From the sequence record OR924452: DNA of 64,000 bases; one strand, given 5' to 3'. The notes beneath the pieces are model-generated. The model was not told the origin of the DNA and made no database searches. It worked only from the letters and a program-made list of their open reading frames with translations. The position numbers and the translations under genes were made by a program. Below, in pieces: positions 546 to 63,302 of this stretch (position 1 is its first letter; every line of letters begins with the position of its first letter). The stretch is from Escherichia phage 241.

Positions 546-690
546 AATACTTCAAAAATAATTTAAAAATTTATTGAAAAAGACTTTACTCTTCAATAAT
601 CATGCACTATTATAGTTCACATAGGGCGGTACACAACACCCCGCCGAATGAAAAGTGAAACGACCCAACTACATTATGAGGAATTACATC

Positions 691-2694: not shown

Positions 2695-3534
2695 ATGCAA
2701 TCTGCGTCTAAAGTTGTATCCATGAAGCCAGCGAAGACAAAATCTGCTCGTAAGAAAGACACCATCCAGAAGGAAGAAGACTGGATGAAGTTTTCCAAAG
2801 GCGATTTCAAAATTGCTCCGTTCAATGGCCTCTCAGAAAATCAGAACCTCGCATATCAATCCGCACTCAATGAACATCTCACCATCGCTATCGGTCCGGC
2901 AGGTACAGGCAAATCCTATTGTGGTGCGTCCGCTGCTGCCAAGCATCTGATTGACAAAACCATCAACAAGATTATCATCACGCGTTCTCCTTTACCGACT
3001 GGAACCACAGCGGGGTTCCGGCCTGGTGACACATATGAAAAGCTGATGCCTTATTTGATGCCGCTCATACAGACATTCAAAAAGGTTCTCAAAACAGATA
3101 CGGGTTCCGACGGTTTCTTCAACTATCTGTGGGAGAAACGCATCATAGAAATTCAAGACCTTGAAACTGTGAAGGGGATGACTTTCGATGATTGTTTCCT
3201 GATTATCGAAGAGGCGCAGGAATGCGATATGGAGCAACTGAAAAACTTATTGACTCGTGCTTCAGATTCTTCGTACATCTTCGTAAATGGAGATATCAAA
3301 CAGTCTAACAAGCGACTGCGTGATAGTGCGTTACAGACGTATGTGGATTCCTTTAAAGACTTCAACAACAAGCTGGAAACAGGTTCTTTGCAAATTGACG
3401 GTGTAGAAATCGGAGATGAATATCCTGAGTGGGTTCAGCCATTCAGCATCATCGAATTCGATAAGTCTGATCGTAATGGTCGCGGTAACTTCACCCGCCT
3501 GATGTTAGAAATTAACGACCTGTACAACATTTAA
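2695..3534 (+). CDS. phoH: PhoH-like ATPase
   Basis: Walker A AIGPAGTGKSY and overall PhoH-like architecture; start moved to ATG at 2695 with AGGAAGG RBS (the track start at 2659 is GTG). Confidence 0.8.
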   Translation: MQSASKVVSMKPAKTKSARKKDTIQKEEDWMKFSKGDFKIAPFNGLSENQNLAYQSALNEHLTIAIGPAGTGKSYCGASAAAKHLIDKTINKIIITRSPLPTGTTAGFRPGDTYEKLMPYLMPLIQTFKKVLKTDTGSDGFFNYLWEKRIIEIQDLETVKGMTFDDCFLIIEEAQECDMEQLKNLLTRASDSSYIFVNGDIKQSNKRLRDSALQTYVDSFKDFNNKLETGSLQIDGVEIGDEYPEWVQPFSIIEFDKSDRNGRGNFTRLMLEINDLYNI

Positions 3535-3618
3535 ATACCACACGAACTTCCCCGTCGCCTTCAATCCATGGAGGCGACGTATAATAACAGCCTGCATTAA
3601 CACAAACCGAGGATCGCT

Positions 3619-7315: not shown

Positions 7316-7345
7316 AAAGCCCCTGATCTAGGGGCTTTACTTTTG
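7316..7345 (+). terminator. rho-independent terminator
   Basis: AAAGCCCCTGATCTAGGGGCTTT followed by a T-rich tract. Confidence 0.6.
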
Positions 7346-7415
7346 AAACCTTCCCGCCTATACTTCCCAGTAATTCATTGGCAAACGCCACAAATTGAAC
7401 AGCAGGTACTATATC

Positions 7416-10523: not shown

Positions 10524-11030
10524 TAGTCAATTAGAATCATGGGTTATTTATGGCGGGGATTTGAAATCTGTCGAATAGTAATATTATAGGAAGCTCTGCT
10601 TCCGTTCAACTTTATTCTTTTCGTTTCTACTCGCTGAAGCTCGTAACACCGCCTTGACAGGCAGTCCCATTCCAATGCCATGGAGGCATAAAGGCGAGGA
10701 AAATACTGTACACCTCAGAACATGCGTAGAAAAGGATTATTTTTGCTTCAAAACAAATTCAAACCCCAATTTACACAACACTTACTTCAGCAACAACGGT
10801 GTTATAGCAATTTAAGGTTAAACGTTCCTGTCTTAACCTATAAAACAGGTAAGCAAAGAAAACCCCACATTACGTGGGGTTGGAAGATTTCTTGGACAAA
10901 CGTATCTTTAGTGTCTCTGTTAGCAAATCAAGATGCCAAGGCATCGACTCGCTTATTTCAAATATGCTATAGCCATGTGCCTTTAATTCGTCACACATCA
11001 CAAAGTAGGAGAGTAAATCAATTTCAAAAA

Positions 11031-11834: not shown

Positions 11835-11862
11835 AATGTATCTCCACGGTATATTGTAACCA

Positions 11863-11870
11863 TATTTATA
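11863..11870 (-). promoter_or_regulatory. T4-type late promoter (TATAAATA)
   Basis: Exact TATAAATA on the minus strand about 29 nt upstream of the ATG at 11834. Confidence 0.5.
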
Positions 11871-11883
11871 ATGAGGACCGAAA

Positions 11884-12408
11884 ATGCACGCGTTCTGTTT
11901 CAGTAAAGTTGGAGAACAACTTACCATTAATTATCCGGATACAAATACGGATTTCTTTGTATTGCTAACGGATTTCGCAAATAAATTGGGGATCAAGAAT
12001 ATCGCCATGACTGTGGACGATATGAAATTTGGTCGTCTGGGTGTAAAAGATTTATTGAATTACGGATTCAACGTAATCATTGTCGATCAGACATACAGCC
12101 CAATTGACGAGGAAGATGTTATTCCAGTTTGGGTTCAACGAGACATAAACACTCTGGATAAGCATTATCCCGATTGTGTCATCATTGGCGAATTAATACC
12201 ATATTTTCATAAACGTCGTCGGCTTGAATCAATTAAAAGTTATTTTCAAGATAGCGATGACGGATATAAAATGGATGTCCTTACGAGCGGTTGGGTTGTG
12301 AAGAATACCACAGGCAATGCCGACCGAATTACTTCCCGTCTTTATGAATATGTTAAAGAACGGGATTATGAACTGGAGAACAATAATGCCAAACGTAGAA
12401 CGCGCTGA
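11884..12408 (+). CDS. hypothetical protein (174 aa)
   Basis: ORF diverging from the late gene; GAGGA RBS. Confidence 0.45.
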   Translation: MHAFCFSKVGEQLTINYPDTNTDFFVLLTDFANKLGIKNIAMTVDDMKFGRLGVKDLLNYGFNVIIVDQTYSPIDEEDVIPVWVQRDINTLDKHYPDCVIIGELIPYFHKRRRLESIKSYFQDSDDGYKMDVLTSGWVVKNTTGNADRITSRLYEYVKERDYELENNNAKRRTR

Positions 12409-12871: not shown

Positions 12872-12908
12872 TCCGGTCTAAATACCCATAACACAATGAA
12901 ACTTCGTT

Positions 12909-13520
12909 ATGGGTATTTTTATGAAATTTTGCGGAATCGACTATTCTTATGGCTGTCCTGCCATGTGCTTCTGGGATGATAAAGATCCTTTGGATTTTGA
13001 CCATCTTCATTTCTATGCGCATCATACTGTAGAAAAACATTGTCGTCAGGTACGGCATAACATCCTCATTTTACGCCAGCCGAAATATGAATCCCCAGAA
13101 GAACGCTTCTACAATATCTCCAAATGGGCCGAAGCTGTTCTTCTAACCGAGAAGCCTGATTTCATCACCCTTGAGGGGTACGCAATGGGCAACTCGAAGA
13201 ATTCCAATAACATATGCCAGACTGCTGAAAATACATCTTTATTGAAGCAAGCAATGCGCCGGAATAATATGGAATTCCAGATCGTTACTCCTTCTTTCGT
13301 TAAAAAGCATTTCTGTGGTAAAGGAAACGCCGATAAATTGGTAATGATCGATCATTTCGAGAAGCTGTTCAACGTTAAGATGCGTGGTATAATGGACATG
13401 TTGGACGTGAAGGATCCAAAGCCTATCGATGATCTTGTAGACTCATTCGCAAACATGGTGTCTGGACCTTACTTCATAGAAAATTATCCCGATTTCAATA
13501 GAGGTGTAAGAAATGATTAA
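12909..13520 (+). CDS. possible RuvC-like Holliday-junction resolvase
   Basis: N-terminal MKFCGIDYSYG resembles the RuvC GID motif, with a later acidic TLEGYA and C-terminal IDDLVDSFA; weak; two in-frame ATGs (12909, 12921). Confidence 0.35.
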   Translation: MGIFMKFCGIDYSYGCPAMCFWDDKDPLDFDHLHFYAHHTVEKHCRQVRHNILILRQPKYESPEERFYNISKWAEAVLLTEKPDFITLEGYAMGNSKNSNNICQTAENTSLLKQAMRRNNMEFQIVTPSFVKKHFCGKGNADKLVMIDHFEKLFNVKMRGIMDMLDVKDPKPIDDLVDSFANMVSGPYFIENYPDFNRGVRND

Positions 13521-14285: not shown

Positions 14286-14525
14286 ATGAGCAAAGAGCAA
14301 ATTTATAAATTGTTGAAGGCGCAAGAGTATCTGCCAGGTTCTATTCGCTGGCGTCATGGTAGCCTCAACGAACATGCTGATGATATGGATCGCGTTCGTT
14401 TCACAACGCCGGAAGGTAAATCCTATGTCATCGAGTACCATACATTCTTGGAAGGTCATAAAACCTTCTCGGATGTGTACGATATTATTGAGATAGACCC
14501 AGCAAAACAAATGATTGCGGGTTAA
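14286..14525 (+). CDS. hypothetical protein (79 aa)
   Basis: ORF. Confidence 0.45.
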   Translation: MSKEQIYKLLKAQEYLPGSIRWRHGSLNEHADDMDRVRFTTPEGKSYVIEYHTFLEGHKTFSDVYDIIEIDPAKQMIAG

Positions 14526-14549
14526 CTCAATAGCAAAAGGCAGTATAAT
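14526..14549 (+). promoter_or_regulatory. putative promoter upstream of gp32 (TCAATAG box, 10 nt spacer, TATAAT)
   Basis: CTCAATAG-caaaaggcag-TATAAT, about 70 nt upstream of the gp32 ATG. Confidence 0.35.
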
Positions 14550-14621
14550 TACATCGTCGGAATAATAGACAAATACATTTACAGAATAGCCCGAAGGGGC
14601 GGATTATAGAGGAATAATAAA

Positions 14622-15659
14622 ATGGGTAATTTATTTGATCGTCTTAAACAATCTCGTGGCCAACAAGCCGAAGCCATGCAACAGCGTCTCGCTCAGCAAG
14701 GTCAGCGTGTTGGTGGCGGTCGTGACCCGCGCATCTGGAAGTGGACTTGGAATGAAAAAGGCACTTCCGAAAACATTATTCGTTTCCTGCCTATCCCTTT
14801 AGTGGACATGAAGGCTCAAGAAGAAGGCACCATCCCTGAAGATGCTGTGTTAACTCCATGCGCCATGATCATGAAACACGCTTTCCAGGGTGCTGGCGGC
14901 TGGTATATCGAAAACTCACCTCAGACTTTCGGTAACGATGATCCGGTTCGTGACCATGATCGTCCTCTGTGGGCACAACAGAAAGAAACGAACGATGAAA
15001 AACTGAAGACGGTCCTGAAAAAACGTCTGCCGGACACCAAATACTACGCCAACATTCTAGTGATCAAAGATGGCAATAATCCGGAAAATAACGGCAAGGT
15101 CTTCTTGCTGGAATTCGGTAATGCCGTCAAGAAAATCCTGGATTCGGCTCAGAATCCTAAGTTCTCAACCGACCCGAAATTCGACCCGTTCGATATGTGG
15201 GAAGGTGCGAATCTGATTCTTAACCTGTTCGGCGAAGAGAAAGAGTTCGGAAACTGGAAAGGCCTGGTTGCCAACTTCACCAACGTGAAGTGGGATAGTC
15301 CGGCACCGCTGGGAACCGACGAATACATTGAAGAGATCTGGGAAAAAGAGCACAGCTTGTTTGAGTTCTTTAATCCGGCCAACTTCAAATCGTACGAAGA
15401 TCTGGAAAAACGTTTGCGCAAAGTTCTGGCCATCCCTGATAATCAGCCTCTGGTTGAAGGCGGTGCTTCTACTATGGCACATGCGCCTACCCAGTCTCAG
15501 GAACCCCAGCGCCCTACAGCGCAGGAAAGTCTGAACCAACAACAATCTCAGCCTTCTAATGCACAGCAATCTGTTCCAGCCAATAATGGTGGTGCGGGTG
15601 CCGATGCGAAACAGACGGCTTCCATTGATGAGTTCGAGCAGTTCCTGAAGCAAGACTAA
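14622..15659 (+). CDS. 32: single-stranded DNA-binding protein, gp32 family
   Basis: Shares IRFLP, WYIE, ANILV.KD...PEN.GKVF and WEGAN blocks with T4 gp32; acidic C-terminal tail; codon-optimised. Confidence 0.85.
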   Translation: MGNLFDRLKQSRGQQAEAMQQRLAQQGQRVGGGRDPRIWKWTWNEKGTSENIIRFLPIPLVDMKAQEEGTIPEDAVLTPCAMIMKHAFQGAGGWYIENSPQTFGNDDPVRDHDRPLWAQQKETNDEKLKTVLKKRLPDTKYYANILVIKDGNNPENNGKVFLLEFGNAVKKILDSAQNPKFSTDPKFDPFDMWEGANLILNLFGEEKEFGNWKGLVANFTNVKWDSPAPLGTDEYIEEIWEKEHSLFEFFNPANFKSYEDLEKRLRKVLAIPDNQPLVEGGASTMAHAPTQSQEPQRPTAQESLNQQQSQPSNAQQSVPANNGGAGADAKQTASIDEFEQFLKQD

Positions 15660-16631: not shown

Positions 16632-16665
16632 GATGAGGACTCCATTTAAATAATATATCTGCTGA

Positions 16666-16673
16666 TATTTATA
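16666..16673 (-). promoter_or_regulatory. T4-type late promoter (TATAAATA)
   Basis: Exact TATAAATA on the minus strand about 35 nt upstream of the proposed start at 16631. Confidence 0.5.
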
Positions 16674-16685
16674 AGGAGTTGACAA

Positions 16686-17390: not shown

Positions 17391-17396
17391 TTCTAA

Positions 17397-17430
17397 AAGC
17401 CGTTCTATGGGATAATTCGCGAACGGCTTT
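17397..17430 (+). terminator. rho-independent terminator
   Basis: AAAGCCGTTC...GAACGGCTTT hairpin with T-rich tail. Confidence 0.5.
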
Positions 17431-18489: not shown

Positions 18490-18662
18490 TATTCACGTCA
18501 GTCCGCGCTATTCCAGCGTTCCGTTGTCTAACACAGAAGTGTTAACCAACTTTTCAATAAAAAGTGGTTTACATCTTCTAAAAAGGCAGTATATTAATGT
18601 TCCAGACGCACAGTTGAACATTAAACTGCCAAAGAAGGTTACTACACAAAAGGGTTTTTATT

Positions 18663-19622: not shown

Positions 19623-19694
19623 TTTAACTCAGAAGCATTCAATAGATGAAGGGGCTGCTATAATAGCAGCTCCTTTTGTTTATTGGAGCACACC

Positions 19695-25855: not shown

Positions 25856-25918
25856 CTTCAATAATGGTGGTCATAGGGTATAATCTCTATGATCTGAATA
25901 TTAACCCAGGAGCACATC

Positions 25919-26263: not shown

Positions 26264-26575
26264 ATGTCAGTTGAACAAATCGGGTTTTACCAACTTCCTT
26301 CTGATCCCAAGCTGCGTCAAAAGATGATGCAGACATTGGAAAATTGCCGCGCCGCCCAGATCCGTATCAAGTCTGAACAGACATTTGTTACCGAAGCTCT
26401 GGCCGAATTGGCAAAAGAAACAGGCATCAAAGCCGTTGATCTGCGCAAAGTCGTTACTGACCGCGCTGGCGGAACATACACCAAGACCATCGAGACCAGC
26501 GCCAAATACCAAGATCTCTATGAGTCTCTGTATCCTAATGCAGCGCCTGATCGCGCAGCCGATCCTCAGCCATAA
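26264..26575 (+). CDS. hypothetical protein (103 aa)
   Basis: ORF with GAGGA RBS. Confidence 0.45.
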   Translation: MSVEQIGFYQLPSDPKLRQKMMQTLENCRAAQIRIKSEQTFVTEALAELAKETGIKAVDLRKVVTDRAGGTYTKTIETSAKYQDLYESLYPNAAPDRAADPQP

Positions 26576-26586
26576 ATCCCCCAGAA

Positions 26587-26612
26587 AGCCCAACAAATTG
26601 TTGGGCTTTTTA
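26587..26612 (+). terminator. rho-independent terminator
   Basis: AGCCCAACAAATTGTTGGGCT followed by TTTTTATTT. Confidence 0.55.
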
Positions 26613-26693
26613 TTTGAAACCTTTACTTCAATAAAACATACGGCTATCATTTAACCTACTTTGAAAAGTTTCACTATATCATGAGAGGCAAAT

Positions 26694-27887
26694 ATGAAAG
26701 CCAAGACCTTCAGTATTCCTATCGACAACATTGGTCGTGTCAAGGAACGTCTGGCCAAACTTGAAAGAACGGCCAAGCGCCTGAATCTCGAGTTCCCTCT
26801 TGTCGAATACAGCGAATCATACAAAACCCAGCATCGCGATTCTATCACTGGTGAAAAATTCTATCGGTGGTGGCAGGATTGTACACTCACTGGTGAAGGC
26901 ATCGACCGCCCTGTTTCCTACGGCGGGTGGAGCATTATTGGACAATTCAATCACCAATATCCAAAAGTCATCTTGAATAAATTAGCAGATGACATCCACC
27001 CTAATTTCATTCAAAGATTCGAAGCCGAAAACGTGTCTTGGTGTGAGCATTGTAATAAATCTGTGCGTCGTCATAACACATATGTTGTTCGTAACGAACA
27101 ATCCGGCGCTCAAATGTTGGTCGGCAGTAGCTGTATGCACCATTACGTTCCTCATCAGAAATCGCTTGATGCCGTGATGTCTTATTATATGTCGATACAT
27201 GAAATGTTCTCACCTGATGAAGATGACCCTGAAGGCATCTATCGAGTGAACGAACCTGATTACGTTGACACTGAAGGTTATTTGCGGAATTGCTTTCAGG
27301 TTCTGCTATCTGGTATGAGTATGAAGAGCGATGATTTTGGTCGAGTTCTTGGTCATATTTCTAGCGGGACTCGTCCGGAGAAAGGTTCTGACATTGAGAT
27401 ATTCTATAACAAGGCAGTTAAAGCCCGTGAAGATGCTCAATCAGAGATGTACCATATGATGCTTTTCATCGCCGCGTTGTCTGAGAACAATGATTTCAAC
27501 GTTCGTCTGAAACGTATGTGTGAACCTGGATATCACCTCGTTAAGGACTCCACGACAGTTCGTTGGGGAGCAGCAAAGTATTATGATTATATCCACACCC
27601 CCCGCCAAATGCGTTCTGTATCAAATTGGGTGGGGGAAGTCGGTGAAATGTTAGAAGTGCAAGTCAAATTCGAAGCAAGGATTTTCCTGTATTCATCTGA
27701 TTATGGTGACACGTATCTGTATACTTTCAAAACCAAAGAAGGCAATACCATTACATGGAAGACTTCTTATATGGAAACCGAATTCCTGGAAGGTGATATG
27801 ATCATTCGTGGTCGCGTCAAAGAATTGACCGAATTCAAAGATGTTAAACAAACTCAGGTAACAAGGGCAAAACTGAGGAAATTATGA
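26694..27887 (+). CDS. hypothetical protein (397 aa) with internal Cys/His cluster
   Basis: ORF; WCEHCNKSVRRH...SSCMHHY suggests metal binding. Confidence 0.5.
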   Translation: MKAKTFSIPIDNIGRVKERLAKLERTAKRLNLEFPLVEYSESYKTQHRDSITGEKFYRWWQDCTLTGEGIDRPVSYGGWSIIGQFNHQYPKVILNKLADDIHPNFIQRFEAENVSWCEHCNKSVRRHNTYVVRNEQSGAQMLVGSSCMHHYVPHQKSLDAVMSYYMSIHEMFSPDEDDPEGIYRVNEPDYVDTEGYLRNCFQVLLSGMSMKSDDFGRVLGHISSGTRPEKGSDIEIFYNKAVKAREDAQSEMYHMMLFIAALSENNDFNVRLKRMCEPGYHLVKDSTTVRWGAAKYYDYIHTPRQMRSVSNWVGEVGEMLEVQVKFEARIFLYSSDYGDTYLYTFKTKEGNTITWKTSYMETEFLEGDMIIRGRVKELTEFKDVKQTQVTRAKLRKL

Positions 27888-28762: not shown

Positions 28763-28817
28763 TTCAATAACTGTTTCACCCATATAATACATGGGAATTT
28801 ACAGAAGGAACACAACT

Positions 28818-29159
28818 ATGACCACACTCGTAGAAACATTATTCCCAGGATGCACCCTTGGGCGCGGCGGTAGCGAAGCCAACGGGCTGGCAATTGACGC
28901 CGAACCACAGAACTGCGTTGTTATCGACAAATTCCATGACAATCACTATCCTCTGAGCCATCGCCGTGATCATTATCTGGTTTCTGTGGGTGAAACATTG
29001 GTCTCTCTTCGTATTTGTGAAGCAATGCCTGGTTATGGTTATGACGCATTTGCATATATCCATAGCGTTTCCAATGGGGAAATGGGGAAAGAAACCCTGA
29101 CTGAACAATTCAAAGGATGGAAAGAATCTTTTACGTCCGTCAAACCGCCGAAGAAATAA
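28818..29159 (+). CDS. hypothetical protein (113 aa)
   Basis: AGAAGGAAC RBS before internal ATG at 28818. Confidence 0.45.
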   Translation: MTTLVETLFPGCTLGRGGSEANGLAIDAEPQNCVVIDKFHDNHYPLSHRRDHYLVSVGETLVSLRICEAMPGYGYDAFAYIHSVSNGEMGKETLTEQFKGWKESFTSVKPPKK

Positions 29160-29174
29160 TTGAGGATTATATTA

Positions 29175-29783
29175 ATGTCACTGAAAAATTTACTGAAACG
29201 CATCTTCACTACCGTTGAAGCGAACGTCACTGCAGGTTTAGATAAACTGACTGATACTGAAAAGCGTCTGAATTTGGCTGCACGGAAACTATCTGATCAC
29301 ATCCGACGTTTAGAAGAAACTCGTGTAACTAATGTCCGTCAAGGCGTTAAGATGAAGAAAACAGCTGATGAAAATCTAGCAGAAGCCATTAAGCGGGAAA
29401 CAATTTTGAAAGACGCTATTGCCCGTGGTGTAACGCCTACTCGTGCCGATGCGTTAATCATTCTTCATCGCCGTCGTATGGGCGAAGCCTTATTGGACAA
29501 AGTCAAAGAGATTGAATCTGGTAGCGTAAAATTAAATTCGGCAATTGTTCAACTGGGCGACAAATTGGATGTGGTTAAGTCTAATCTAGAATTAGTTCGC
29601 ATTCAGAAAGAATCCAATGATCTCGGATTAACTCTACCAGAAGATATCGATTATGCTGCTGATATGGTCAGCATTGACGTTGATTCTATTCTGCGTGAAG
29701 CCGAAATTGCCGACTCCAATTATTCATCCAATAATCCGTCAACGATTGAAGCGGACAACTATCTGGCAAGTTTATCAAAATAA
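29175..29783 (+). CDS. coiled-coil protein (PspA/IM30-like?)
   Basis: TGAGGA RBS before ATG at 29175; heptad-rich sequence. Confidence 0.4.
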   Translation: MSLKNLLKRIFTTVEANVTAGLDKLTDTEKRLNLAARKLSDHIRRLEETRVTNVRQGVKMKKTADENLAEAIKRETILKDAIARGVTPTRADALIILHRRRMGEALLDKVKEIESGSVKLNSAIVQLGDKLDVVKSNLELVRIQKESNDLGLTLPEDIDYAADMVSIDVDSILREAEIADSNYSSNNPSTIEADNYLASLSK

Positions 29784-29819
29784 TTTGGGAGGGGCTTTGC
29801 CCCTTCATTCGGGGGATTT

Positions 29820-30407
29820 ATGGTAATTATCGACTCAACAGATATTTTGATTGCGGGTTTTAGTATTATTGGTGTCTTCACCCTCGTGCGTAGTATCAAA
29901 AAATCAATTCGAAAAAGGGTTGTTGATGTTGTTGCCCCAGATTTACAATTAGAAGATACCAAAGAAAATTCTAAAGATATAAAACAAATTCTGGCCAGCC
30001 GTGTATCCAAACGATTGTCACAGAAAATAGAAGATTTCAGTTTGGAGCAAAAAGACCTTAATACTACTCCTGAAGAATATTTCCAATATTTCATGGAAGG
30101 TTTGGGTTGGCCATCCATAGAATATTGTATCTTAAGAACGGATTATTTCTATGTGACCATAGTATGTAAAAGTGATCAACAGGTTGCCGAGCCTAATCAA
30201 AGGGTATGGTTTTATAATTATTCAGATTTAGATAATCACTTTTTAGTGTCTCTTCATAGATTGTTTAAGGAGTATATGGACAACGGAAGCACACAAACCC
30301 CCACTGTGGAAACAGTAGAATCTATTGTGGAACGTGCCCGCGCCCGTAATGAATCGAAATCGGATTACCTTTCGAAGTATGGATTTATTTGGAAGGAAGA
30401 CATATGA
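29820..30407 (+). CDS. membrane-anchored hypothetical protein (195 aa)
   Basis: GGGGGA RBS; N-terminal TM helix. Confidence 0.45.
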   Translation: MVIIDSTDILIAGFSIIGVFTLVRSIKKSIRKRVVDVVAPDLQLEDTKENSKDIKQILASRVSKRLSQKIEDFSLEQKDLNTTPEEYFQYFMEGLGWPSIEYCILRTDYFYVTIVCKSDQQVAEPNQRVWFYNYSDLDNHFLVSLHRLFKEYMDNGSTQTPTVETVESIVERARARNESKSDYLSKYGFIWKEDI

Positions 30408-30580
30408 AAGACATCTTATTTTATATTTGGTCTACAATATCTACAATATTAATCCTTGGGATCTTGATTATTCTTTTTCAACCATTTTGGGCCGAATGGA
30501 TCAATAATAGAAGAATGCGCAAATATGGGGTAGATGTTTTACAGATTGTTGACAAGGCCAGAGAAAGACACGGAAAATAA
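30404..30580 (+). CDS. small membrane protein (58 aa)
   Basis: GGAAGGAAG RBS; overlapping start/stop; hydrophobic. Confidence 0.4.
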   Translation: MKDILFYIWSTISTILILGILIILFQPFWAEWINNRRMRKYGVDVLQIVDKARERHGK

Positions 30581-30582
30581 AT

Positions 30583-30607
30583 CTATTGAAGTCTCTGGGG
30601 TTATAAT
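30583..30607 (+). promoter_or_regulatory. putative promoter (CTATTGAAG box, 10 nt spacer, TATAAT) upstream of DNA ligase
   Basis: CTATTGAAG-tctctggggt-TATAAT, 27 nt before the ligase ATG. Confidence 0.45.
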
Positions 30608-30633
30608 AACAGGACGAATAACCCTGGAGACAC

Positions 30634-32061
30634 ATGATGCTTCCTCTCTTAGAAATAATCCAAAATCTTCGTGATACCAAAGGCACTAATGCTAAGAAAG
30701 CCGTGTTGACCGAAGCGTTCAGAACCAATCCGGAACTTGTTGATTTCCTTCAATACGTTTATGATCCAATGCGTTCTTATTATCGCACCCAATTCAATCT
30801 GAATGCATTCCCTCGCATGCTTTCGCGCGGCGTTGTCGGTAGCTGGGATCAGGTTTATGACGTTCTTGATATGATGTCAGAACGTCGTATTGGCGGGATG
30901 AAGGCCGACCAAGAACTGGCAAAAGCGGCAACAAATATTCATCCTGATTACCACACCCTCATTCAGATCATTCTCGACCGAGACATTAAAGCGGGGATTG
31001 CGGAGAAAGGTATCAACGCAGCATTCAACGCAGCCGGAGGCACAGGTCGCCTGATTAACATCCTCCCATATCATCGTTATGACAACATGACGATTGATTT
31101 GTTGAAGACGATGGACTTCAAGCGCGGCGTATTCAGTCAGCTGAAGTCTGACGGGATGTTCGCCAACATCATTTGTCGCTATGGAAAAGATCCAGAGATT
31201 CGTTCTCGCTCTGGTTCTTTGATTGCGGGTGGTTCCGTTGATAACCTATCATTGGTTTTCAAAGATATCATCTATGACGCTGGGATTGGGGAAAGCGTTT
31301 TTCATGGTGAACTCCTTGTTATCGATCTGAAGACGAATACAGTCCTTCCCAGAGCTATCGGTAACGGTAAACTTAACAGCGTCATCCAGACTGGTGAACC
31401 TCTGGAAGATCGTTATCGAGTGATTTATCGTGTATGGGATGTTGTTCCATACGACAAATGGTTCAACGCAGAGCGGGTTGACACCCCGTATGAACGACGC
31501 TTCGATATCATCCAGCAGTTGTTCGATGAAGACGACGGGTTGGTTCAGGTTCAAGAGACCCGTGTCGTTCATTCGTTTGAAGAGGCGGTTGATCATTTCA
31601 AGGACGCACTGGCCCGTGGTGAAGAAGGAACGATCTGCAAAGCGGCTGATATGCCATGGGAAGACGGCACGTCCTCTGAAGGTCTGAAGCTGAAGATGGA
31701 AGTGGAATGCGACCTTGAAATTGTGGGATTTAACGAAGGGGATAAGAAAGGCAAACATGCCAGGACTTTTGGCTCTCTGTTATGTAAGACTTCCGACGGC
31801 CTATTAGTTGTTGGTGTCTCTGGGATCTCAGATGAGCTGAGACTCCGGATGTGGGAAAACCAGGGCGACTACATTGGCATGATAGCTGCGGTGCTCTCTA
31901 ATGGCGTACAGGATAAAACAGATGACGCCATGAAGTCCTTGTTCCTCCCGCGACTTGTCGAAGTGCGCACAGACAAGAAAGTTGCCAACACGCTGGCTGA
32001 AGTCTATGCTATCCAGAAAGCGTACATTGAAAACATTCTGGTGTTGTTAGAGGCAGCATAA
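30634..32061 (+). CDS. 30: ATP-dependent DNA ligase
   Basis: Adenylation motif LKSDGMF (KxDG); size and architecture as T4 gp30. Confidence 0.85.
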   Translation: MMLPLLEIIQNLRDTKGTNAKKAVLTEAFRTNPELVDFLQYVYDPMRSYYRTQFNLNAFPRMLSRGVVGSWDQVYDVLDMMSERRIGGMKADQELAKAATNIHPDYHTLIQIILDRDIKAGIAEKGINAAFNAAGGTGRLINILPYHRYDNMTIDLLKTMDFKRGVFSQLKSDGMFANIICRYGKDPEIRSRSGSLIAGGSVDNLSLVFKDIIYDAGIGESVFHGELLVIDLKTNTVLPRAIGNGKLNSVIQTGEPLEDRYRVIYRVWDVVPYDKWFNAERVDTPYERRFDIIQQLFDEDDGLVQVQETRVVHSFEEAVDHFKDALARGEEGTICKAADMPWEDGTSSEGLKLKMEVECDLEIVGFNEGDKKGKHARTFGSLLCKTSDGLLVVGVSGISDELRLRMWENQGDYIGMIAAVLSNGVQDKTDDAMKSLFLPRLVEVRTDKKVANTLAEVYAIQKAYIENILVLLEAA

Positions 32062-32074
32062 TCTCGATTGAATT

Positions 32075-32096
32075 AAGGGGGTGTAACCCCCTTTCA
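32075..32096 (+). terminator. rho-independent terminator
   Basis: AAGGGGGTGTAACCCCCTTT. Confidence 0.6.
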
Positions 32097-32117
32097 ATAA
32101 ATCTATGGCAGTATAAT
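32094..32117 (+). promoter_or_regulatory. putative promoter (TCAATAAA box, 10 nt spacer, TATAAT)
   Basis: TCAATAAA-tctatggcag-TATAAT, 29 nt upstream of ATG 32146. Confidence 0.35.
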
Positions 32118-32145: not shown

Positions 32146-32409
32146 ATGAAACTTGTTGACAAACAACCAAGAAAGAATAATGACTCATTACATCTCTTAA
32201 CCATTATGCGGGAGTTGGGAGTTTCTGAATTGCAAATGATGAAGTTGATGAATTGTTCTGACGTTGTCTATAATTGGACAAACGGTTATCGTCTTATCCC
32301 AAAATCATTCCGTCGTTTTATTTTGGCATTGGTGTTTATTCATCGCCAAGGAAAAACAGAAGAGTTTCAACGTTTCGTTAAATCAGAGGAGAGATCACGT
32401 GGTTGGTAA
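32146..32409 (+). CDS. hypothetical small protein (87 aa), possibly DNA-binding
   Basis: ORF. Confidence 0.45.
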   Translation: MKLVDKQPRKNNDSLHLLTIMRELGVSELQMMKLMNCSDVVYNWTNGYRLIPKSFRRFILALVFIHRQGKTEEFQRFVKSEERSRGW

Positions 32410-40622: not shown

Positions 40623-40650
40623 GTTTGTCTCTCCCAATAAATTAAGGGGA

Positions 40651-40675
40651 AGTATACCTTCCCCTTCTTCAATAA
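40651..40675 (-). promoter_or_regulatory. putative promoter (TTATTGAAG box, 10 nt spacer, TATACT) embedded in a terminator hairpin
   Basis: Minus strand TTATTGAAG-aaggggaagg-TATACT, 28 nt upstream of ATG 40622; hairpin GGGGAAGG-tatac-CTTCCCC. Confidence 0.45.
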
Positions 40676-46172: not shown

Positions 46173-46202
46173 GGTATTATCTCAATATGGGGTTAGGCGG
46201 CA

Positions 46203-46227
46203 ATTATACCGCCATTTTCTTCAATAG
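46203..46227 (-). promoter_or_regulatory. putative promoter (CTATTGAAG box, 10 nt spacer, TATAAT) with the -10 in a hairpin loop
   Basis: Minus strand CTATTGAAG-aaaatggcgg-TATAAT; hairpin GGCGG-tataattg-CCGCC; about 30 nt upstream of ATG 46172. Confidence 0.45.
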
Positions 46228-52145: not shown

Positions 52146-52233
52146 TGTTGGAGCCTCGAATTTACGTTCCGCTCATGGGGAACATAAAAATTATACCCTT
52201 AGACACAACAATGAAAAAGAGGCCGAAGCCTCT

Positions 52234-54412: not shown

Positions 54413-55996
54413 TTACTTGTACAGACCGTCAACGTCAATAGATTTATGTTGGCGGTTGTATTCCGTGGTGTAGTCATCCAACACGAGGTATTCACAGCAG
54501 CGGATTTTACTAGAACCGTAATCATCAGTGATAGACACGATGTCTTTCGGGTTCAGCTTACAACGCACAACCCGCTGGCCCAGGCTACCGAAACATTGTT
54601 TCAGATACGCCAGAGAACAAACGTGAAGACCATAGGAGCACAGGTCTTTGTTGTTATCGTTCACGAATGAGCGAGCCATCCGGACGATAGTGCCAGGTGC
54701 GTTGCTGACTTTACCTGTGCGCTTATCCATATAATTTCCGCGAACGGATTTGTATAGAATAATGTCGCCGTCTTCATGAATCTCAATGTCTGAGTATGCC
54801 ATGAATTCATAGATCCGACCAGACTGAACCAGCGCGGCGCTCGGGTTTTGGAACATCTTGTCAAGGAAACGGCCCAAGCGTTCCAAGTTCGGATAATCGC
54901 CTTTTAATGCCAAAGCCAAAATGCGTTTGGCAACGGAAGTTCCGGTGATATCATAGCCACCCCAGCGAACACGGTTGTCTGAAAGATCAACCATGCCTGT
55001 AGTGAATTGTTTGATGGCTTCACGCGGTTTCATCAGAGTGTAAGCTGTTTTGACGTCACGATTTTTAATCGCTTCAACAATACGGTCATACGCCTGGTGG
55101 CTCGTTGTGATCGTTTCCGGTTTACCATCGACCACAATCACGATACTTTCCGGCAAAATCATGATCTGGTGTTCGTTCAGGAACACAGACAGTTCTTTTT
55201 CATTAAATGAATTCTGAGTTTGCTTGTCGCCTGTTTCTTCAACAACTGCAACCGTCTTGACCACGAATAATACGGATGACAATGCCAGACGAAGTGTACG
55301 GCCTAAAATTGCATCAAAGTAACCCACGCGCCGACGGGCATCAAGGGAACCGCGCATCGGATATGTTTCACCGTCATGCTGTACGCTGATTTTCACACCA
55401 TCATTGACTTTAACCACGCCATCAACCAATGCAGTAGCCAGTTCTGCTAACGGCGAAATATTTTCTTCATTGAAGCGGCTTGACCGAGTTTCTAACGGTT
55501 TCAGTTCTTCGCTTCTGAAAAGTTTGGCCTGAATAGCAGCAGAGCTATCATAACGCATACAGATAAACACTGTTTGGTTTTCCAGGAAACGGCCAACATA
55601 CCATTCTTCGCCTTCAGAATCGACAGACACCGAACCTTCCAGAACTTCATAGGTGTCGGGGATTTTGCCTTCTTCAGTCAATTCTTTAATTGGCGAAATC
55701 ACGACCACGTTATTAGATTCTTTGATGATACGAACCATCAGGGCGCGGGCAATTGTTTTGGCACTGACACCATAAACTGATGCCAGAGAAGAATTGCTTT
55801 CACCTTTGCTGCTCTTGGTTTGTATTTCTTGAATCTGTTCGGTGGTCAGAGACTTAATCGAAGCCGGATCCACTCCCAGTTCTTTATCCGACACGCGTTG
55901 TATCATTGAGCGCGGTACGCCCAATTCACTGGCTATTGAACTTTGACTTCTGTTCTCATTCAACAGCTTGAGAATACGTTTTTCTATAGCATTCAT
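54413..55996 (-). CDS. rIIB: rIIB-like protein with extended N-terminal region
   Basis: C-terminus CSYGLHVCSLAYLKQCFGSLGQRVVRCKLNPKDIVSI parallels T4 rIIB CSRGLHVCSKSYIRHFGSSTDRVVKVKVHPRDVVSI; N-terminal HTH-like segment; 527 aa vs 312 in T4. Confidence 0.8.
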   Translation of the reverse strand: MNAIEKRILKLLNENRSQSSIASELGVPRSMIQRVSDKELGVDPASIKSLTTEQIQEIQTKSSKGESNSSLASVYGVSAKTIARALMVRIIKESNNVVVISPIKELTEEGKIPDTYEVLEGSVSVDSEGEEWYVGRFLENQTVFICMRYDSSAAIQAKLFRSEELKPLETRSSRFNEENISPLAELATALVDGVVKVNDGVKISVQHDGETYPMRGSLDARRRVGYFDAILGRTLRLALSSVLFVVKTVAVVEETGDKQTQNSFNEKELSVFLNEHQIMILPESIVIVVDGKPETITTSHQAYDRIVEAIKNRDVKTAYTLMKPREAIKQFTTGMVDLSDNRVRWGGYDITGTSVAKRILALALKGDYPNLERLGRFLDKMFQNPSAALVQSGRIYEFMAYSDIEIHEDGDIILYKSVRGNYMDKRTGKVSNAPGTIVRMARSFVNDNNKDLCSYGLHVCSLAYLKQCFGSLGQRVVRCKLNPKDIVSITDDYGSSKIRCCEYLVLDDYTTEYNRQHKSIDVDGLYK

Positions 55997-58823: not shown

Positions 58824-58848
58824 ATGATACTGGTGGGAGACTCAATAG
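58824..58848 (-). promoter_or_regulatory. putative promoter (CTATTGAG box, 11 nt spacer, TATCAT) upstream of rIIA
   Basis: Minus strand CTATTGAG-tctcccaccag-TATCAT immediately after a terminator hairpin. Confidence 0.4.
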
Positions 58849-58852
58849 AAAA

Positions 58853-58870
58853 AGCCTCCAAAAGGAGGCT
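58853..58870. terminator. rho-independent terminator
   Basis: AGCCTCCAAAAGGAGGCT hairpin flanked by A/T tracts. Confidence 0.55.
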
Positions 58871-58880
58871 TTAATCAGGT

Positions 58881-60428: not shown

Positions 60429-60434
60429 AAAAAA

Positions 60435-60468
60435 GAGGATAGAGCAATAATACCCTATCCCCCTTTAT
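60435..60468 (-). terminator. terminator hairpin with AATAAT loop; one of two near-identical intergenic elements
   Basis: GAGGATAG-agcaataatacc-CTATCC with flanking T-tract on the minus strand; followed by the shared TTTATTGAAGAACG. Confidence 0.5.
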
Positions 60469-60478
60469 TGAAGAACGA

Positions 60479-63221: not shown

Positions 63222-63244
63222 GATGTATTTCCTTGTAAAAGAAA

Positions 63245-63274
63245 GGGGAACGGGCTAATAATAACCCATTCCCC
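63245..63274 (-). terminator. terminator hairpin with TAATAATAA loop; second copy of the repeated intergenic element
   Basis: GGGGAACGGG-ctaataataa-CCCATTCCCC, T-rich flank on the minus strand. Confidence 0.5.
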
Positions 63275-63302
63275 TTTATTGAAGAACGCAATCGCAGTCA
63301 GA

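Follow-up and report, generated by a model that had tools for sequence, protein, structure and literature searches.

Middle promoters of bacteriophage T4 carry a MotA box that is centred at -30 and lies 12 ± 1 bp from the -10 element (PMC2988021). In the T4-type phages RB49 and phi1, cassettes named PeSLs have a stem-loop that commonly sits between the -35 and -10 elements or overlaps the -10 element, and their promoter and terminator activity was shown with reporters (PMC2839356). In the PmSLs of phage nt-1 a Mot box lies at -30 and the -10 element is TATTAT, and T4/PST early promoters follow the consensus TTTACW-N17-TAYWAT (PMC4122927). The genome papers on phages CBA120 and AG3 did not identify early or middle transcription signals and reported MotA and AsiA as missing (PMC3184105), the LIMEstone paper predicted promoters solely by similarity to T4, and a 2024 review of the family Ackermannviridae does not mention transcription. 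Here we describe a short box, TTCAATA(A/G) or its reverse complement, in a 64,000-nucleotide stretch of Escherichia phage 241 (sequence record OR924452; this whole stretch is called the window). The box precedes TATAAT-like hexamers at a fixed distance, and we consider it reasonably probable that the two form delayed-early/middle promoters with a family-specific -30 box and no -35 element, arranged as composite promoter-terminator cassettes. T4-like phages already offer both designs, a -30 box paired with a -10 element and a promoter that lies within a terminator; peculiar to this family are the word, its occurrence in two orientations and the missing factor. Our search for promoters and transcriptomes of ViI-like phages or Ackermannviridae and for the motif string, outside of which the 2012 genus paper lay, returned no description of the box. 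The abstract of that genus-defining paper (Adriaenssens et al., Arch Virol) reportedly mentions 'conserved regulatory sequences', and the paper may already describe the box.

The window is at least 99% identical to the Salmonella/Escherichia phages Mooltan, Sa157lw and Vi01 and therefore belongs to a Kuttervirus (ViI-like, Ackermannviridae). About 100 genes were curated from the list of open reading frames (ORFs) and the annotation of Sa157lw; intergenic DNA amounts to 3.6 kb (5.6%). For genome-wide counts we used the whole genome of the near-identical Sa157lw, put together from five pieces. Syntenic regions of 46-48 kb were compared in CBA120 (88% identical) and in Klebsiella phage Trex, Dickeya phage PP35 and Salmonella phage SKML-39 (about 77-79% identical to the window), and the surroundings of gp32 also in 19 IMG/VR loci. 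Expected counts of composite patterns were taken from 100 first-order Markov simulations, and 7-mers and 8-mers were ranked against dinucleotide shuffles of the window's own intergenic DNA.

An earlier note on this DNA had listed seven sites at which TCAATA(A/G) precedes a -10-like hexamer. All seven are present as described, with 10-13 nt between the two elements, and the enrichment of the box exceeds what an A/T-rich intergenic background provides. TTCAATA/TATTGAA is the most over-represented intergenic 7-mer (14 observed, 1.27 expected, z about 11) and CTTCAATA/TATTGAAG the top 8-mer (7 observed, 0.16 expected), and both outrank the words of terminator stems. Intergenic DNA holds the 7-mer at 7.6 times its density in coding DNA; across the window TCAATAR occurs 45 times against 25 expected, a count that none of 100 shuffles reached. 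The composite of TTCAATA, 11-15 nt and TATAAT (at most one mismatch) was found 9 times against 0.28 expected, with a maximum of 2 in the 100 simulations, and eight of these nine sites are intergenic with a gene start on the same strand within 150 nt. The inverted word TATTGAA with the hexamer 10-12 nt further on occurs three times (0.19 expected), each time between genes and co-oriented with them; its 8-mer form is TATTGAAG followed by 10 nt and TATAAT. When both orientations are pooled, 11 of 12 composite sites lie between genes and point the same way as a gene that starts no more than 150 nt away. The whole Sa157lw genome holds 13 composites with TTCAATA (0.8 expected) and 4 with the inverted word (0.7 expected). 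The word singled out in the earlier note is hence borne out as a real, enriched, position-locked element associated with promoters.

The spacing to the -10 element is most often 13 nt when counted from the end of TTCAATA (12 nt from that of the 8-mer) and 11 nt when counted from TATTGAA. These peaks recur in each of the related genomes (CBA120, Trex, PP35 and SKML-39). By aligning all good -10-like hexamers in the intergenic DNA of Sa157lw and scoring their -35 matches, we could separate three classes of putative promoter: early-type ones that carry the box in addition to a -35 element (class A), and others without -35 element that carry the box in direct (class B) or inverted orientation (class C). 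A separate small peak at a spacing of 7 nt stems from class A, whose spacer itself contains the box at 6-10 nt from the -10 element. The listed sites can consequently not be kept as the single class in which they had been placed: the site at 26628 has an early-type -35 element (TTTACT at 17 nt) with the box merely within the spacer, and 14526 also has a -35 match of 4/6 (TTAACT, 16 nt). The earlier note had further left a choice between one recognition element read in either orientation and two related promoter classes. Since YTATTGAAG, the consensus of class C, matches exactly the reverse complement of the flanked class B box, CTTCAATAR, and the distances to the -10 element are nearly equal, one element in either orientation is the better of these options.

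In class B, TTCAATAA lies 10-14 bp (mode 12) from the -10 element, and the consensus of the box is (C/A)TTCAATA(A/G). The best -35 match of these promoters averages 2.5 of 6, against a genomic background of 2.49. Every hexamer in classes B and C is within one mismatch of TATAAT and has A2 and T6, and the midpoint of the 9-mer box falls at about -29 in class B and about -27 in class C. Outside the window, a class B site also precedes the gene of gp43 DNA polymerase. The class B members in the window are 14526, 19638, 25857, 28763, 32093, 60466 and 63277:

14526-14549, plus strand: class B, upstream of gp32 (single-stranded DNA-binding protein, 14622-15659); box CTCAATAG at 14526-14533, 10 nt, TATAAT at 14544-14549.
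19638-19681, plus strand: class B in a putative intrinsic terminator, upstream of the 19695 gene cluster that includes dUMP hydroxymethylase; box TTCAATAG at 19638-19645, 13 nt, TATAAT at 19659-19664 in the loop; stem 19648-19676, then a T-run.
25857-25894, plus strand: class B, between the gp41-like helicase (upstream) and gene 25919 (downstream); box TTCAATAA at 25857-25864; TATAAT at 25879-25884 in the loop of a hairpin (25869-25894) without T-run.
28763-28795, plus strand: class B; box TTCAATAA at 28763-28770, 12 nt, TATAAT at 28783-28788; weak hairpin CCCAT..ATGGG.
32075-32117, plus strand: terminator (32075-32093) followed by class B, upstream of ORF 32146-32409 and gp59; box TTCAATAA at 32093-32100, 11 nt, TATAAT at 32112-32117; best -35 match 0/6.
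60429-60472, minus strand: class B in a putative terminator; box TTCAATAA at 60472-60465, 12 nt, TATTAT at 60452-60447 in the loop; T-run 60434-60429.
63237-63283, minus strand: class B in a putative terminator; box TTCAATAA at 63283-63276, 12 nt, TATTAT at 63263-63258 in the loop, then TTTCTTTT.

The site 25857-25884 and a class A site at 592-613 add to those listed before, as do three class B sites with variant boxes:

3560-3585, plus strand: variant box upstream of nrdA; TTCAATC at 3560-3566, 13 nt, TATAAT at 3580-3585; a hairpin GTCGCC..GGCGAC ends just 5' of the -10 element.
17391-17430, plus strand: variant box; TTCTAAA at 17391-17397, 13 nt, GATAAT at 17411-17416 in the loop of hairpin 17395-17430.
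52190-52215, minus strand: variant box directly after a terminator; TTCATTG at 52215-52209, 13 nt, TATAAT at 52195-52190.

Class C promoters consist of YTATTGAAG, 10 nt and TATAAT, and their best -35 match averages 2.0 against the same background of 2.49. The members in the window are 30584, 40668, 46220 and 58842:

30584-30631, plus strand: class C, upstream of the DNA ligase gene; TATTGAAG at 30584-30591, 10 nt, TATAAT at 30602-30607 within a long hairpin (30591-30631).
40644-40674, minus strand: class C, upstream of a gene cluster holding dCMP deaminase; TATTGAAG at 40674-40667, 10 nt, TATACT at 40656-40651 in a hairpin loop.
46196-46226, minus strand: class C; TATTGAAG at 46226-46219, overlapping the end of the upstream gene, 10 nt, TATAAT at 46208-46203 in the loop of GGCGG..CCGCC.
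58824-58872, minus strand: terminator (58872-58851) followed by a class C variant, upstream of rIIA; CTATTGAG at 58848-58841, 11 nt, TATCAT at 58829-58824.

Like T4 middle promoters, classes B and C have a stringent sigma-70-type -10 element (TAnnnT) and no -35 element, together with a phage-specific box of 9-10 bp near -30 and about 12 bp from the -10 element, although the spread of 10-14 bp is wider than in T4. They also serve genes of replication and nucleotide metabolism, including gp32, rIIA and DNA polymerase. Unlike in T4, the box TTCAATAA is unrelated to the MotA box (a/t)(a/t)(a/t)TGCTTtA and occurs in both orientations, and no homologue of MotA or AsiA was detected (PMC3184105). Because the box sequence is unrelated and the MotA and AsiA domains were not found, classes B and C are not T4 middle promoters proper. 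Neither are they canonical sigma-70 promoters with a TTGACA-like -35 element at 16-18 bp, a description that fits class A and, marginally, 14526 (TTAACT). A generic sigma-70 scan accordingly recovers class A and the gp32 site (TTAACT, 16 nt, TATAAT) and none of the other class B and C sites. The weak -35-like TTAACT of the gp32 site (14522-14527) overlaps the stop codon of the upstream gene.

Class A promoters have the layout (G/C)TTTACT, 16-17 nt, TATAaT, with TTCAATAA within the spacer 6-10 nt from the -10 element and often a second copy of the box, in either orientation, at about -45 to -55. Scoring of the -35 region returned TTTACT or TTTACA in every case. The members in the window are 592, 7335, 18553 and 26627:

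571-613, plus strand: class A; inverted box TTATTGAA at 571-578, -35 TTTACT at 585-590, box TTCAATAA at 592-599, -10 TATTAT at 608-613.
7335-7364, plus strand: class A with a class C-like word; -35 TTTACT at 7336-7341, TTTTGAA at 7341-7347, -10 TATACT at 7359-7364.
18553-18595, plus strand: class A; box TTCAATAA at 18553-18560 (about -50), -35 TTTACA at 18568-18573, -10 TATATT at 18590-18595.
26611-26650, plus strand: class A, upstream of gene 26694; inverted box-like TATTTGAA at 26611-26618, -35 TTTACT at 26622-26627, TTCAATAA at 26627-26634 in the 17-nt spacer, -10 TATCAT at 26645-26650.

The -35 element and the spacing of class A are those of T4/PST early promoters, and like these the class A promoters usually stand just after a terminator. 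They differ by the additional TTCAATAA in the spacer and/or a copy in either orientation at about -45 to -55, and in two cases by an 8-bp inverted repeat around the -35 element. One of these is 571-599, where TTATTGAA and TTCAATAA are 13 bp apart (TTATTGAA-N13-TTCAATAA) and flank the -35 element; the other, at Sa157lw 140059-140098 (boxes 140059-140086), has the same layout. The 18553 promoter matches the consensus at 10 of 12 positions and is kept in the Dickeya and SKML-39 phages, and the 7335 site is kept in all five lineages. At the orthologues of 26611, the Dickeya and SKML-39 phages carry the box upstream of the -35 element instead. In CBA120 (about 27620-27660, the orthologue of 26611-26650), a tandem duplication of CTTTACTTCAATAAAA, which comprises the -35 element and the box, takes the place of the window's TATTTGAAACCTTTACTTCAATAAAA, so that these two Kutterviruses have the upstream box copy in different orientations.

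The comparison of orthologous intergenic regions that the earlier note had proposed came out in favour of the box: in CBA120, Trex, PP35, SKML-39 and the IMG/VR loci, box and -10 element persist and spacers and flanks drift. At the gp32 site, TCAAT and TATAAT are invariant in 15 loci (the window and 14 others, from four lineages), the box varies as CTCAATAG, TTCAATAT, ATCAATCA and ATCAATGT, and the spacer diverges. The post-helicase, ligase, orf40622, orf46172, nrdA and orf17453 sites follow the same pattern. The sites at 30584 and 3560 are kept in all five lineages (the stem of the latter changing to GCCGCC/GGCGGC), and 46226 is kept in CBA120 and in the Klebsiella and SKML-39 phages. The orthologue of 32093 in CBA120 has box and -10 element with a diverged spacer that is 1 nt longer, and that of 28763 in SKML-39 reads TTCATTA with an identical -10 element and hairpin. 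At 40674 box and -10 element are kept next to a diverged upstream flank. The distant relative L028 (gp32 47% identical, 52% GC) keeps early promoters of the form CTTTACTTC..TATAAT and one terminator with TATAAT in the loop, and TTCAATA is absent from it. Its promoters (CTTTACTTC, about 17 nt, TATAAT) lie at 1750-1795, 11845-11925 and 13030-13075. Since L028 has CTTTACTTC and not TTCAATA, the early -35 word CTTTACTTC is much older than the box.

What the earlier note did not remark is that at 19638, 60471 and 63283 the TATAAT-like hexamer makes up the loop of a strong, terminator-like hairpin (z -5.6 to -7.4); at 25857 and 28763 the hexamer is enclosed by weaker hairpins. We scored hairpins by a criterion of a tight hairpin plus minimum free energy (MFE); a looser measure, which accepted every base pair around the hexamer, had no discriminating power. 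Across the genome, tight hairpin loops hold 11 of the 21 hexamers of classes B and C, compared with 13% of control -10-like hexamers (odds ratio 7.2, p = 3e-5), and 12 of the 21 reach an MFE of -12 or below, compared with 3.7% in coding and 9% in other intergenic DNA. None of nine class A promoters does. The sites at 19638 (top-ranked terminator of the window with 13 pairs; MFE -30.6, z -6.9, or -6.85 to two decimals), 60466 (MFE -26.7, z -7.4) and 63277 (MFE -26.5, z -5.6) have GC-rich stems and T-runs and resemble full intrinsic terminators. Hairpins without T-run are present at 30584 (MFE -20.3, z -4.8), 25857 (z -3.3) and 46220 (z -3.2); 40668 scores -2.8 and 28763 a weak -1.5. No structure was found at 14526 and 32093 (z -0.2 and +2.0), where box, spacing and -10 element are nonetheless present; in relatives outside Kuttervirus a hairpin does enclose the -10 element of the gp32 site.

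The stems differ from site to site. Between genera they are held by compensatory changes and G:U wobbles, as at 25857 (CATAG/CTATG versus CGTAG/CTACG) and 40674 (GGGGAAG/CTTCCCC versus GGAGAG/CTCTCC); the 19638 site is kept in all relatives with wobbles that change position, and in hairpin 17395-17430 two pairs are changed on both sides and 92% of the cells in the comparison pair. These hairpins have therefore been selected as RNA. By inspection, terminators of the window without a box have GAAA or TTCG tetraloops, and the box-linked hairpins have loops of 6-9 nt with TATAAT in gene direction, which argues that the loop sequence has been selected as a -10 element in DNA. The box keeps a constant distance from the -10 element (mode 13 nt, counted from the 7-mer), but its distance from the stem ranges from 0 to 8 nt. 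A search of Rfam gave no match anywhere in the window.

The joining of an intergenic promoter to a stem-loop, here a putative terminator or attenuator, is shared with the PeSL and PmSL cassettes of T4-type phages (Arbiol 2010; Comeau 2014), and an association with indel junctions may be shared as well; here two junctions only hint at a role in recombination. The differences are the phage family, the other -30 word, and the extent of likeness among class B and C copies, which is confined to the box and the -10 element and does not reach over about 100 bp. Both indels relative to Sa157lw end exactly at upstream edges of cassettes, at window positions 30576 and 32067. At the first, additional genes in the window make up about 1.4 kb (29144-30575) and end just before the ligase class C promoter; at the second (32054-32067), two Sa157lw genes (677 nt) are missing just before the terminator and class B promoter. 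By analogy, these positions would fit the modular shuffling described for PeSLs.

From these features we infer that transcription starts at the class B and C sites, that it belongs to the pre-late phase and that a dedicated factor takes part. Host sigma-70 RNA polymerase would read the -10 element, and a trans-acting factor, most likely phage-encoded, would bind the box, which is centred at about -28 to -30 and some 12 bp upstream of the -10 element, and replace the missing -35 contact. The genes served would be those for replication, nucleotide metabolism and other pre-late functions (gp32, ligase, rIIA, the dCMP deaminase and dUMP hydroxymethylase clusters, gp43 polymerase). Class A would represent the early promoters, read by unmodified host polymerase. 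Because the box sits in the class A spacer and flanks the -35 element, one may speculate that the factor represses class A, such that one protein could turn early promoters down and middle promoters up. Where the promoter lies within a hairpin whose loop holds the -10 element, as about half of those in classes B and C do, the hairpin as RNA would stop or attenuate transcripts from upstream, and the embedded promoter as DNA would restart transcription within the 3' arm. The new transcript would lack the 5' arm, so that the hairpin could not form in it, and each gene block would be insulated and re-promoted. A more specific version, which we hold only tentatively and think doubtful, is that a DNA-binding factor unrelated to MotA and AsiA reads the 9-bp word either way near -30, activates the -35-less promoters and shuts off the early ones through the copies in the spacer and upstream. 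If true, this would be an independent invention of an early-to-middle switch, with the -10 element presented in the loop of a terminator hairpin.

Several points weigh against -35-less middle promoters that depend on a box-binding factor. The box stands 10-14 bp from the -10 element in class B and 6-10 bp from it in class A, a looser spacing than most stereospecific activators have, and an activator in contact with the polymerase would not ordinarily read an asymmetric 9-mer both ways at a single position. The gp32 site and 26628 have usable -35-like hexamers and may not need a factor. At terminator stems, as at site 19638, the AATAAA part of the box could be favoured as an A-tract that precedes the stem. 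Transcription-start or expression data for Ackermannviridae phages were not found in the searchable literature, and an exact-protein look-up of gp32 gave long genomic contigs only and no transcript-like contigs. The Pfam domains MotA_activ, MotCF and AsiA had no match (E ≤ 0.01) among 108 Sa157lw proteins of 60-250 residues, scanned as concatenates with those below 60 residues left out; Kutter et al. (2011) likewise reported the absence of MotA and AsiA. Moreover, no candidate factor could be tied to the box.

Three proteins were considered as binders, and none could be tied to the box. For a 'transcriptional regulator' beside site 26627 (window 26264-26575), Pfam gave no significant domain, and a 68-residue protein absent from the window has a weak winged-helix match only. 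The third is a protein of the HU/IHF family that Sa157lw encodes at 54519-54797, outside the window (PF00216, E = 1e-29). The phage genome also encodes a 5-hydroxymethyldeoxyuridine DNA kinase (PF18748), consistent with hypermodified thymidine. This recalls phage SPO1, in which the HU-like protein TF1 binds DNA containing hydroxymethyluracil at early promoters. Two readings of the box as a known polymerase contact were discarded as well: as a displaced -35 element, TTCAAT (14 bp) and TTGAAG (10 bp) would be too close to the -10 element, and for a sigma-32-type promoter (TTGAAA..CCCCAT) the downstream part is missing.

Rather than the site of a dedicated factor, the box could be the relic of a mobile or recombining, PeSL-like promoter-terminator cassette, whose copies are alike by descent and recombination and in which the -10 element works alone or with A/T-rich upstream DNA that contacts the C-terminal domain of the polymerase alpha subunit. 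We regard this as unlikely. Class A copies do share far more than the box (TTTACTTCTTCAATAA..GTATAMTTC..AAGCAG, at Sa157lw 29653, 64504 and 140093), the copies at 60466 and 63277 are alike over about 35 nt, and the two indel ends at cassette edges recall PeSL-mediated shuffling (PMC2839356, PMC4122927). Class B and C copies, however, share only the 8-9-bp box and the -10 element, with unrelated spacers and stems, and promoters with only a -10 element and no TGn are normally very weak. The persistence of the box across genera while neighbouring bases drift points to selection on the word itself.

Somewhat less credible still is that the box serves a host protein, a nucleoid-associated protein or global regulator, whose site the phage exploits or tolerates. 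The box is A/T-rich, its occurrence in either orientation at about -25, about -30 and -45 to -55 is typical of architectural proteins, and it is kept in phages of Salmonella, Escherichia, Klebsiella and Dickeya, hosts that share such proteins. As a lead only, TCAATAAAT is one base away from the reported H-NS nucleation motif TCGATAAATT. By inspection, the box does not fit the consensus sequences of IHF (WATCAANNNNTTR), FNR, CRP or OmpR, and the tight spacing to a -10 element that lacks a -35 partner argues for direct recruitment of polymerase. L028, which keeps the CTTTACTTC early promoters without TTCAATA, suggests that the word is specific to a clade and linked to the phage.

It is very unlikely that the box acts at the RNA level, as an A-rich tract or a processing or binding site before terminator or stabiliser hairpins with incidental TATAAT loops: many sites are real hairpins (three of them have T-runs and fold with very low energies), the G:U wobbles that they tolerate show selection as RNA, and an extended fold of 19638 pairs the U-tract region with the box, but the hairpin-free 14526 and 32093 keep box, spacing and -10 element, the fixed distance runs to the hexamer and not to the stem, class C turns the box round and leaves the hexamer as it is, an arrangement that a single RNA motif would not explain, and the loop is a near-consensus -10 element in gene direction at every site while box-free terminators have tetraloops. 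None of these explanations accounts as well as -35-less promoters with a -30 box for the fixed distance to a gene-oriented -10 element both with and without hairpins.

ViI-like phages are widely used in biocontrol, detection and engineering. A -30 box conserved in at least four genera provides a concrete map of putative pre-late promoters and a handle on the missing regulator, and for engineered reporter phages the cassettes would offer compact, insulated units that terminate and restart transcription. The idea of composite promoter-terminators (PeSL/PmSL) would also extend beyond the T4-like family.

Other signals were noticed in the same intergenic DNA. The 5' untranslated region of gp32 holds a hairpin at 14581-14602 (ACAGAATAGCCC-loop-GGGGCGG), some 20 nt ahead of the start codon. 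All genera have this hairpin, with varying loop and closing pairs (GCCCGAAGGGGC, GCCCCCTGGGGC, GCCCTGAGGGGC), and by analogy with T4 gene 32 mRNA it could be a translational operator. The 507 nt at 10524-11030, between the gp5 and gp26 genes (minus strand), have no annotated gene in most relatives; they contain a terminator and a promoter-like GTTGAAC, 15 nt, TATAAT with a hairpin in the spacer, again without Rfam match. Finally, (C/T)TAAATACC words at 1758-1766, 3531-3539 and 12878-12886, upstream of an endolysin-like gene, nrdA and a RuvC-like gene, resemble T4-type late promoters (TATAAATA), and TATAAATA-like words also occur in the divergent regions 11835-11883 and 16632-16685. These words probably mark a gp55-dependent late class.

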